Shown piece after piece: positions 23,698-25,784 of a stretch of DNA of 64,000 bases; positions within the stretch are counted from its first letter, which is position 1, and each line of letters begins with the position of its first letter. The notes beneath the pieces are model-generated. The model worked only from the letters and a program-made list of their open reading frames with translations. It did no database searches and had not been told where the DNA came from. Made by a program: the position numbers and the translations under genes. Origin of the DNA: Candidatus Nanohalobium sp. (GTDB lineage Archaea > Nanohalarchaeota > Nanosalinia > Nanosalinales > Nanosalinaceae); the NCBI GenBank assembly GCA_042217555.1, contig JBDGSL010000033.1:865-64864 (forward strand), written 5' to 3'.

Positions 23698-23882
23698 TGC
23701 GGGAGGCAGGATTTGAACCTGCGAACCCTCTAGGGGACAGCGCATTTCCCGTTGACTTGAAAACACTTCTGTGTTTTCTGCGAACCGGTTTCCTGGATGG
23801 AATCGGTGTCTCAAACCTCTGTCTCTTGGTGGAGAAAGAGGTGTCCTGAACGCTGCGCCTTTGACCACTTGGCGACTCCCGC
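23698..23882 (-). tRNA. tRNA-Leu(CAG) with 101-nt intron (23744-23844) at 37/38
   Basis: GCGGGAG/CTCCCGC acceptor, CAGCG-TTCAGG|G-CGCTG anticodon arm, long variable arm, GGTTCAAATCC T-arm; mature 84 nt. Confidence 0.93.
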
Positions 23883-23908
23883 CTGGTTGTCTTTTACCGG
23901 GCTGATTC

Positions 23909-23914
23909 TTATAA
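23909..23914 (-). promoter_or_regulatory. TATA box of tRNA-Leu
   Basis: TTATAA 27-32 nt upstream of the tRNA 5' end. Confidence 0.5.
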
Positions 23915-23927
23915 GTAGCTGGTTAAG

Positions 23928-24070
23928 CGAGCCTGGAGGGATTTGAACCCTCGACCCCGAGGTATTTCCAACAGTTGAGAATGGAAGATTGAGGCCTTGT
24001 TGGATGTGAAGTGGTAGCGGTTTTTCCAGGTTTAGGAACCTCGTGCTCTGTCCAGCTGAGCTACAGGCTC
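23928..24070 (-). tRNA. tRNA-Arg(CCT) with 69-nt intron (23964-24032) at 37/38
   Basis: GAGCCTG/CAGGCTC acceptor, CGAGG-TTCCTA|A-CCTCG; TTCC/GGAA BHB central helix; mature 74 nt. Confidence 0.93.
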
Positions 24071-24124
24071 TTGTATTGGTTCTCTGTGGAGGTTATAGTT
24101 AAGAAACATGAGAGAAAGAGGTTT

Positions 24125-24370
24125 TTACTCTTCGTCCTCTACGAGTGCTTCTATCTGGAATGTTTTCTGGCACTGTGGGTATCCCTGGCATCCCCAGAAG
24201 AAGCCGTATCGTCCTTCCTTTATCTTCATGGGCATTCCACACTCCGGACATGCGACTTCTCTCGGTGCCTTGTCCTTGTGTTTGCTGCAGACAGGTTGAC
24301 CGGCAGAGTTCTTGGTGGTTGCGTTCTCCCCGCAGAAAACGCACTTTGTCATCTTGGTTTCCTTTGCCAT
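24125..24370 (-). CDS. small Zn-finger protein (topoisomerase C4 Zn-ribbon-like)
   Basis: CVFC..CSKH..CPECG..GRYGFFWGCQGYPQC. Confidence 0.8.
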   Translation of the reverse strand: MAKETKMTKCVFCGENATTKNSAGQPVCSKHKDKAPREVACPECGMPMKIKEGRYGFFWGCQGYPQCQKTFQIEALVEDEE

Positions 24371-24414
24371 GGAAAATGTAAAGAAGTGAGAAAGTTACTT
24401 AACCGTACGTGTTT

Positions 24415-25338
24415 TTACCCGGACTTCTGTTTTTTCACGTAGTCAGCGGCGTTCAGTCCGGCCTGACAGCCTTCTCCGGCTGAGACCTGTACCTGCTGTA
24501 CACCCCTGTTATTAACATCTCCTGCCGAGTAAAGTCCTTCTACACCTGTCTCCATCTCTTTGTTGACTTTGATCCGGCCTGATTCATCTTTCTCCACGAG
24601 ATCTGTGATATCGGAGTTAGGGACCGTACCTATCTCTACAAAGGCAGCCTTGACATCCAGCTCTTTCATCTCTCCTCTGTGGTCATACTTGACACCTTCC
24701 AGGAACTCATCGCCGTAGAACTCTTCAGCGGTTGCTTCACGGATAACCTCGACATTTTCATCTTCTTCTACTTTCTCAATCGTCACGTGCTCTCCCTTCA
24801 GTTCCCCGGAACGGGAGAGAAGAAACACTTTCTCTGCGATATCAGAAAGATAGTCCGCGGCCTCAGTACCGGCGTAACCACCGCCGATCACCGCAACCCG
24901 ATCTCCCTGATAGAGAGGGCCATCACAGACAGCACAGTAGCCAACCCCCTTATTAGCAAACTCTTCTTCACCAGGAACCCCAAGTTTTCTCCTGTGACCT
25001 CCAGTAGCAATAATCACTGCATGAGACCTGAAAACCTTGCCGTCACTTCTTTCAACCTCGAAAACACCGTCCTCACGGCAGATATCAACAACCCTGTAAC
25101 CGGTCTTCTCCTCAACATCATAGTCACGCATATGTTCAAGGAACCTATCCGCCAGGTCAGGCCCGGAAACACTCTTGAAACCAAGATAGTTCTCAACTTT
25201 TTCAGTATTATTCAACTGCCCGCCGTACTCATCCGCTACAACCGTCACGTCCACACCTGAACGTGAAGCATAAATCGCAGCAGACTGAGCCGCCGAAGCA
25301 CCACCAACAACAATCAAATCACGAACATCTTCACTCAT
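24415..25338 (-). CDS. trxB: thioredoxin reductase
   Basis: IVVGGASAAQSAA, GVGYCAVCDG, VIGGGYAG, GLYSAGD; ATG 25338 chosen as start. Confidence 0.9.
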   Translation of the reverse strand: MSEDVRDLIVVGGASAAQSAAIYASRSGVDVTVVADEYGGQLNNTEKVENYLGFKSVSGPDLADRFLEHMRDYDVEEKTGYRVVDICREDGVFEVERSDGKVFRSHAVIIATGGHRRKLGVPGEEEFANKGVGYCAVCDGPLYQGDRVAVIGGGYAGTEAADYLSDIAEKVFLLSRSGELKGEHVTIEKVEEDENVEVIREATAEEFYGDEFLEGVKYDHRGEMKELDVKAAFVEIGTVPNSDITDLVEKDESGRIKVNKEMETGVEGLYSAGDVNNRGVQQVQVSAGEGCQAGLNAADYVKKQKSG

Positions 25339-25392
25339 AAAAAACAGAACCACTCAACAAACTTCAAAACACCCGGCCTTACCCAACCGAAA

Positions 25393-25412
25393 CCCCGCCC
25401 TCTCCCACCCCC
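25393..25412 (-). other. putative G-quadruplex motif upstream of trxB
   Basis: Minus strand GGGGG-T-GGG-AGA-GGG-C-GGGG. Confidence 0.5.
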
Positions 25413-25652
25413 TCATCAAAATAACACTAATAAAACTTCCCCGAAACCACATTCAATACACCCGCACCAACCTCCAGATCCCTCCAACCACAAAAAAGAC
25501 CGGGAGCGGCTTCCCCCAAAAAAACACAGATTTAAGCCCTCCCGGTGAAAAACTATACCTGGAGGAAAGAAGGAAAAAACCCTCCAGCGTGCGTTGATGA
25601 AACTCCATGAGAGTTTCTAAGACTTAACAAACCTTCATAGGAAACTTCGTTC

Positions 25653-25784
25653 GCGGCGTTGGTCCAGTGGCTAAGACACGTGCTTGCCAACACTGTCTAA
25701 CTCCATCACGAGTTAACAGTTCGAGAAGCAGAACGCTTCAACGGCAAATTGCGCGTAACCCGGGTTCAAATCCCGGACGCCGCA
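25653..25784 (+). tRNA. tRNA-Gly(GCC) with 60-nt intron (25690-25749) at 37/38
   Basis: GCGGCGT/ACGCCGC acceptor, CGTGC-TTGCCA|T-GCGCG; TTGC/GCAA BHB helix; mature 72 nt. Confidence 0.92.

Follow-up and report, generated by a model that had tools for sequence, protein, structure and literature searches.

Introns of tRNA-Leu(CAG) and tRNA-Gly(GCC) in a nanohaloarchaeon as probable insertions of a two-hairpin module shared by structured RNA genes

Two tRNA genes of a nanohaloarchaeon from a salt lake (genome G000, 1.31 Mb), those of tRNA-Leu(CAG) and tRNA-Gly(GCC), contain introns that we regard, with moderate confidence, as insertions of a short protein-less module of two hairpins spreading among nanohaloarchaeal structured RNA genes. 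The mismatch between A35 of the tRNA and a G of the intron in the Leu precursor would be a tolerated state. The module has a common fold, is found in many isotypes, occurs patchily among relatives and is reused within other RNAs, and its tuning to the host tRNA follows a gradient. The genes concerned lie close together in the window, that is, in the whole stretch of 64 kb that was analysed:

23697..23882, minus strand: gene of tRNA-Leu(CAG), interrupted at 37/38 by a 101-nt intron, called by ARAGORN with introns allowed
23744-23844, minus strand: intron of tRNA-Leu(CAG), at 37/38
23927..24070, minus strand: gene of tRNA-Arg(CCT), whose 69-nt intron (23964-24032) cannot be recognised as belonging to the module family
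25653..25784, plus strand: gene of tRNA-Gly(GCC), interrupted at 37/38 by a 60-nt intron (25690-25749)

Intronless orthologues join exactly at the borders of the Leu and Gly introns, and removal of the introns restores a normal tRNA. Run without the intron option, ARAGORN found no tRNA in the window. At the gathering score, Rfam matched the tRNA bodies only, so that the introns correspond to no known Rfam family. Introns at position 37/38 are present in 33 of the 40 anticodon types of G000, and the proportion of intron-bearing anticodon types in nine of its relatives ranges from 6/33 to 20/26. For comparison, 15 of 39 tRNAs carry introns in Nanohalococcus and 4 of 38 in Nanohalovita (PMC10266531). 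An identical repeat of positions 23716-23869 is found in a contig from a salt lake, possibly derived from the same source sample, and a metagenome scan added one more intron of Leu(CAG), whose central helix is perfect.

The module is laid out as AC, a first hairpin (P1), usually two linker bases, GA, a second hairpin (P2) that opens with GAA and closes with TTC, again GA, a short spacer, four bases pairing with positions 32-35 of the tRNA, and a two-base end. Its elements are placed as follows in the two introns:

23815..23842, minus strand: Leu outer P1 (loop CACCAA), with its closest relatives in Leu genes
23811..23814, minus strand: Leu linker TT and conserved GA, located by the descriptor and the covariance model
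23757..23809, minus strand: Leu nested second module copy, made of AC, P1', a TCGCA linker, P2' with an AGAA loop, and AA
23746..23749, minus strand: Leu GGAA, intron side of the central helix, pairing with U32, U33 and C34, its G facing A35
25692..25720, plus strand: Gly P1 (loop CATCAC), located by the fold, the descriptor and the covariance model
25721..25741, plus strand: Gly linker TC, GA, P2 (25725-25739) and AA where a 3' GA is usual, located by the descriptor and the covariance model
25744..25747, plus strand: Gly GCAA, pairing perfectly with U32, U33, G34 and C35

In our reading of its sequence, the Leu intron would be one module copy nested in another. The outer P2 is a three-pair stub around a complete second copy, whose first 11 nt are identical to the start of a Leu(GAG) intron of a relative (G007). 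The same nesting is seen in the Ser(TGA) intron of G000, which is the best match of the Leu intron (z 8.3). The single-strand fold of the Leu intron pairs the outer stubs differently from the nested reading. Folding compared with that of shuffled sequences gave z values of -3.8 for the Leu intron, -3.5 for the Gly intron and 0.0 for the Arg(CCT) intron. A first, sequence-only reading of this DNA had pointed out that the Leu and Gly introns both start with ACAC, have a CA(C/T)CA sequence in the loop of their first hairpin and end with TCAACG-NNAA-AT, and these features are all there. The terminal NNAA-AT is, however, largely dictated by the pairing with U32 and U33 and by a common AT bulge, 71 of 124 introns ending in AT. 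The same reading listed a TTCG linker and a GAA..TTC hairpin with an AGAA loop as shared; both introns possess them, but those of Leu sit in the inner copy, whereas its outer linker is TT-GA.

The existence of a module family was examined on introns from 47 genomes. A structural descriptor matched 52 of the 124 introns of a first set, against 0.8 in shuffled introns, and 104 of the 234 introns, from 27 anticodons, of a later set that had been enriched by covariance-model matches. The covariance model was built from six introns, both window introns being left out; in the 64 kb window, it nevertheless placed the Gly intron first (E 0.007) and the Leu intron second (E 0.01). Of 70 genomes in the order, 48 contain matches to it, against none of four archaea outside the order. 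Across 102 matches, 96% of the cells of the stems are paired, against 31-50% in slid controls, and all 11 pairs show two-sided changes; the alignment used here was fitted to the model and the sequences are related. In general, as the genomes themselves are related, the counts given here are not independent. Pairs beyond those required by the descriptor still hold, for instance P2 pair 5 in 98 of 104 introns, and the GA flanking P2 is found in 91 of 104 on one side and in 94 of 104 on the other. Alignments made with MAFFT put P1 in the wrong place and were excluded. A reading of the junction as a T-loop was rejected, the supposed invariant U varying as part of a Watson-Crick pair (AT 67, CG 21, GC 8). 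In viral contigs, 37 matches to a sequence pattern and one weak partial match to the model were obtained, with no full module; the pattern is narrow, and the result does not amount to absence. A literature search that covered few subscription papers returned no description of a two-hairpin module of this kind.

The distribution of the introns argues for repeated events. Introns are present in 6 of 20 Leu(CAG), 10 of 35 Leu(GAG) and 7 of 20 Gly(GCC) genes, these figures being upper bounds because the searches partly targeted intron-bearing genes. Since the majority of the orthologues of both Leu(CAG) and Gly(GCC) thus lack introns, the introns have been repeatedly gained or lost. The nearest neighbour of an intron belongs to a tRNA with the same anticodon in 23% of cases (4.5% after shuffling) and with the same amino acid in 33% (13%), which we read as some descent along with the gene together with what would be much exchange from isotype to isotype. 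Particular genes give the same picture. In G002, a member of the same genus, the copy in Leu(CAG) is a different one whose helix is perfect, and a hairpin closely related to the G000 Leu P1 is found in Leu(GAG). The Leu(GAG) intron of G000, which is of an unrelated type, is near-identical to one that another genus has in its Leu(CAG) gene (z 33). The proposal that introns had moved among tRNA genes is thereby supported, with 27 anticodon types concerned, patchiness among relatives and near-identical introns in different isotypes, and transposition is the best reading. Patchy presence could also reflect repeated losses.

The module is not confined to tRNA. Most of the covariance-model matches inspected are tRNA introns; the others lie in RNase P RNA, in a group I intron and in the flanks of 16S and 23S rRNA, all of them on the RNA strand. 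In Trp and Met introns, we also recognise the module, again on the RNA strand, flanked by C/D-like boxes. RNase P RNA genes of relatives (L660, L691, L697, L723, L663) have copies at several different sites, and that of G026 has two. The group I intron is that of the G029 16S rRNA (L683:177-521, minus strand). Introns of the D-loop built of hairpin modules were noticed as well, in the Leu(CAG) gene of G002 and, in G033, in two tRNAs (L112:1563-1833; L125; L126).

The fit of the introns to their hosts is graded. Among 234 introns, the helix positions facing tRNA nucleotides 32, 33, 34 and 35 are paired in 232, 226, 214 and 194 cases, respectively, so that pairing falls outward from the 3' splice bulge. 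As these values are far above those of shuffled tails, the tails are tuned to the host, least so at position 35. At least three central-helix pairs are formed in 221 of 234 introns; Gly has four of four and Leu three of four, with a 3-nt 3' bulge. The outer intron helix has a single pair in Leu and Gly and zero or one pair in 85 of 124 introns, which corresponds to a relaxed hBH motif rather than to the strict hBHBh' one. Position 35 would therefore border the open side of the motif as it is described elsewhere (PMC4090602, PMC5829648). As first noticed, GGAA of the Leu intron faces TTCA at positions 32-35, with G opposite A35, and the corresponding tRNA positions in Arg(CCT) read TTCC. A35-G is the most frequent mismatch, and it is concentrated in Leu(NAG) introns (10 of 23, against 1 of 40 in other A35 tRNAs), where it occurs in seven genera and three families. 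Opposite position 35, the six Leu(CAG) introns have G three times, A once and U twice. A single mismatch at 35, being common (17% of introns), says little about where an intron came from. A second isotype-specific relaxation is seen in Leu(CAA) and Leu(TAA) introns (L639, L653, L654, L665, L072), with tails TTAG and TTCG, which are often mispaired at 34 and sometimes at 33.

Considering these properties, the following scheme may be envisaged. The module would persist at 37/38 because the four bases that follow it pair with tRNA positions 32-35. Together with the anticodon stem, this tail pairing would produce the relaxed hBH motif that EndA would cut before sealing by RtcB. P1 and P2 would fold the rest of the intron away as a junction on the one-pair outer helix. 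Selection may be strict on the pairs close to the intact 3' bulge (32, 33 and 34) and loose on position 35, next to the open 5' side; A35-G would thus be tolerated and would characterise Leu(NAG) precursors. The Leu intron itself would be a mosaic made of a 5' hairpin of Leu pedigree, which probably moved between near-identical Leu genes by recombination, and of the second, nested copy. More generally, the most likely route would be copying by recombination among tRNA genes, together with occasional de novo insertion into RNA-loop sequences, and recombining copies may acquire nested ones.

The initial idea of an incomplete adaptation of the Leu intron loses ground with the recurrence of A35-G in Leu(NAG) at the least constrained pair. 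It lives on in a possible, though less probable, alternative with another donor, either Gln(CUG) or an Arg gene of the module family. There, the donor of the 3' part of the Leu intron would be an intron belonging to the module family, in a tRNA that combines U32, U33 and C34 with a pyrimidine at 35. Gln(CUG) would be the likeliest such tRNA, the G of the Leu intron would have stayed uncorrected, and Gln or Arg genes sharing G36-G37 would donate introns to Leu(NAG). Of the tRNAs examined, none but Arg(CCT), Gln(CTG) and a single CTC gene match GGAA. The Gln(CUG) loop differs from that of Leu(CAG) at position 35 alone, and all four Gln(CTG) introns end with GGAA-AT. A35-G is enriched in the module family (9/30 against 2/33, p 0.02). 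Furthermore, in three of seven independent A35-G cases one of the nearest intron bodies resides in an Arg or Gln gene that the tail would fit (two Leu(TAG) introns and one Leu(CAG) intron, with bodies of Arg(TCG), or of Arg(CCT) and Gln, among the closest); about one such case is expected, so that the excess is suggestive at most. The inner Leu copy taken with its tail scores best with a Gln intron, a comparison that is partly circular, the tail being included. However, G is the commonest base opposite 35 whatever its partner (55/124), and U35 takes G about as often as A35 does. The persistence of A35-G across genera and families and the Leu pedigree of the outer hairpin also speak against this alternative.

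It may also be imagined that the module is a host-selected RNA motif rather than a selfish one, for instance an L7Ae-binding k-junction or a stabilising cap, which would be spread by gene conversion and would aid folding, splicing or modification. The sense orientation of the module in tRNA, RNase P, C/D-guide and rRNA-flank contexts would agree with this. In the k-junction (PMC4005666), a three-way junction, one helix carries GA in each of its strands at the base, as in the module; by analogy, the two GA that flank P2 may face each other as tandem G-A pairs. The module nevertheless has a linker of two bases instead of the 3-nt bulge of a k-turn, so that the likeness, known here from sequence, is one of resemblance only, and a two-pair TY/GA extension explains part of the conservation. 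With the absence of the module from most orthologues and the existence of nested and tandem copies, we consider a host-selected motif unlikely; insertion of a spreading module accounts better for what is observed.

The enzymes that could act on the module were also looked at. The sole EndA of G000 (L001:1474-2022, minus strand; 182 aa) is alpha4-sized. It keeps the catalytic Tyr and His and has a basic insertion before the His like that of N. equitans. At the site of the catalytic Lys, which is essential in ARMAN-2 EndA (PMC3488258), it has Ala, which is also found in 30 of the 31 sequences examined. A tblastn search, a weak test in this case, gave no EndA beta subunit. A mobile element acting at the RNA level can also be pictured: the excised intron RNA would be reinserted into loops of stable RNAs by host cutting and ligating enzymes and then copied to DNA, and the three-way junction would replace the outer BHB helix, letting a lysine-less single-subunit EndA excise the module from any anticodon loop. 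We find this doubtful; if true, it would offer a concrete and testable route for the gain of archaeal tRNA introns. As for candidate mobilisers, Y1 transposases and reverse transcriptases were detected in 4 and 7 of 70 genomes, respectively. Neither tracks the module, and neither was found in the intron-rich G007, G010, G020 and G032. No REP-associated (RAYT) transposase scored above cut-off, the Y1 enzyme of G000 being an IS200/IS605 TnpA beside TnpB. G000 encodes a group II-like reverse transcriptase, below cut-off, and this TnpA with a short TnpB (loci L741:1303-2250, minus strand, and L738:1468-2627, plus strand).

The closest kinship originally imagined was that the Leu intron derives from the neighbouring Arg(CCT) intron, or that the Leu and Gly introns are direct sister copies, and this is very improbable: GGAA does pair perfectly with TTCC and the Arg(CCT) genes of relatives carry the module in 7 cases, but the Arg(CCT) intron of G000 has no kinship with that of Leu (z -0.3, rank 86/123) and gives no covariance-model match, which largely refutes its role as source. 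In addition, the Leu P1 has its seven closest relatives exclusively in Leu genes, which account for 24% of the family, and an origin of the intron in the neighbouring Arg(CCT) gene is thus not supported. The comparison of Leu with Gly is more nuanced. The shared architecture is not random, as the descriptor counts attest, and in this respect the expectation that common features would exceed those of shuffled introns stands. Aligned directly and locally, the two sequences score 23 against a mean of 16.6 after shuffling (p=0.04), which is a marginal similarity, and their identity stays below 80%. Gly ranks 27/123 for the untrimmed Leu intron and 2-4 of 104 with hand-trimmed Leu queries. The P1 stems of the two introns differ, that of Gly resembling Ala introns of G007, and TCAA in place of TCGA is a tendency across G000, present in 4 introns. 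Leu and Gly are therefore members of one family, not a proven donor-recipient pair. Still, the CAYCA loop, the AGAA loop and AA-CG, each rare in the family and common to both, hint at a link closer than membership, such as local exchange of the 3' part.

Short dispersed non-coding palindromes, sometimes lying in frame within genes, are known in bacteria as REP/BIME sequences and Rickettsia palindromic elements. Unlike REP/BIME, the module is found mainly in stable-RNA genes and in one orientation, and no REP-associated transposase over cut-off accompanies it.

The closest known case is that of the Thermoproteales, where transposed tRNA introns have been described (Fujishima et al., 2010, as summarised in PMC4090602, which gives the mechanism as unknown) and tested (bioRxiv 10.64898/2026.10.13.758758). 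In both cases, related BHB-type introns reside in different isotypes; those of the Thermoproteales were gained after lineage splits. According to these sources, the Thermoproteales families have high sequence identity, 28% of introns being in families of at least 80%, and occupy many positions (PMC4090602; bioRxiv 10.64898/2026.10.13.758758). The module introns, in contrast, are at 37/38 and measure 50-270 nt, and what unites them is less their sequence than a covarying two-stem fold; the module also nests, and it recurs in RNase P RNA, a group I intron, rRNA flanks and C/D guides. In our assessment, the module works like the Thermoproteales transposed introns, the new elements being the conserved fold, the nesting and the colonisation of other RNAs. 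Canonical archaeal 37/38 introns of the relaxed hBH type (Marck and Grosjean, 2003, as reported in PMC4090602 and PMC5829648) resemble the module introns in position, four-pair helix, 3-nt 3' bulge and presence of EndA. They differ in that the outer helix of the module introns has mostly zero or one pair and that the EndA concerned is alpha4-sized with Ala at the Lys site. Moreover, the body of the module introns is conserved, whereas large variation beyond the splice motif is described as accepted in the review literature (PMC4090602, PMC5829648). A recent Asgard census found no general route of tRNA intron gain (bioRxiv 10.64898/2026.10.13.758758). A defined module of 50-60 nt, with filled and empty sites in close relatives including cultured strains, makes both the arrival of an intron and the tuning of its splice site testable.

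Finally, the surroundings of these genes deserve mention. A tyrosine integrase gene (22239-23585, minus strand) immediately follows tRNA-Leu(CAG) and adjoins an McrB-like AAA/EVE gene (17772-20960) and its partner; despite this adjacent integrase, the contig was searched in vain for an att-like duplicate of the Leu 3' end. In G015 (L037), Leu(CAG) is present as two identical genes that lack an intron and are separated by 3.7 kb, possibly through an assembly duplication. Elsewhere in the window, a weak two-hairpin, module-like match (2561-2607, minus strand; E 0.37) falls within a protein-coding region. The tRNA called Arg(TCT) by ARAGORN at 60779-61002 (minus strand) is better read as Ser(CGA) with an intron at 37/38, and a weak module match (60645-60694) is located just behind it. 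Behind tRNA-Gly, positions 25785-26115 are occupied by hairpin cassettes, each closing with a decayed copy of the tRNA 3' end, and a near-identical cassette stands behind tRNA-Glu(TTC) on contig C37.
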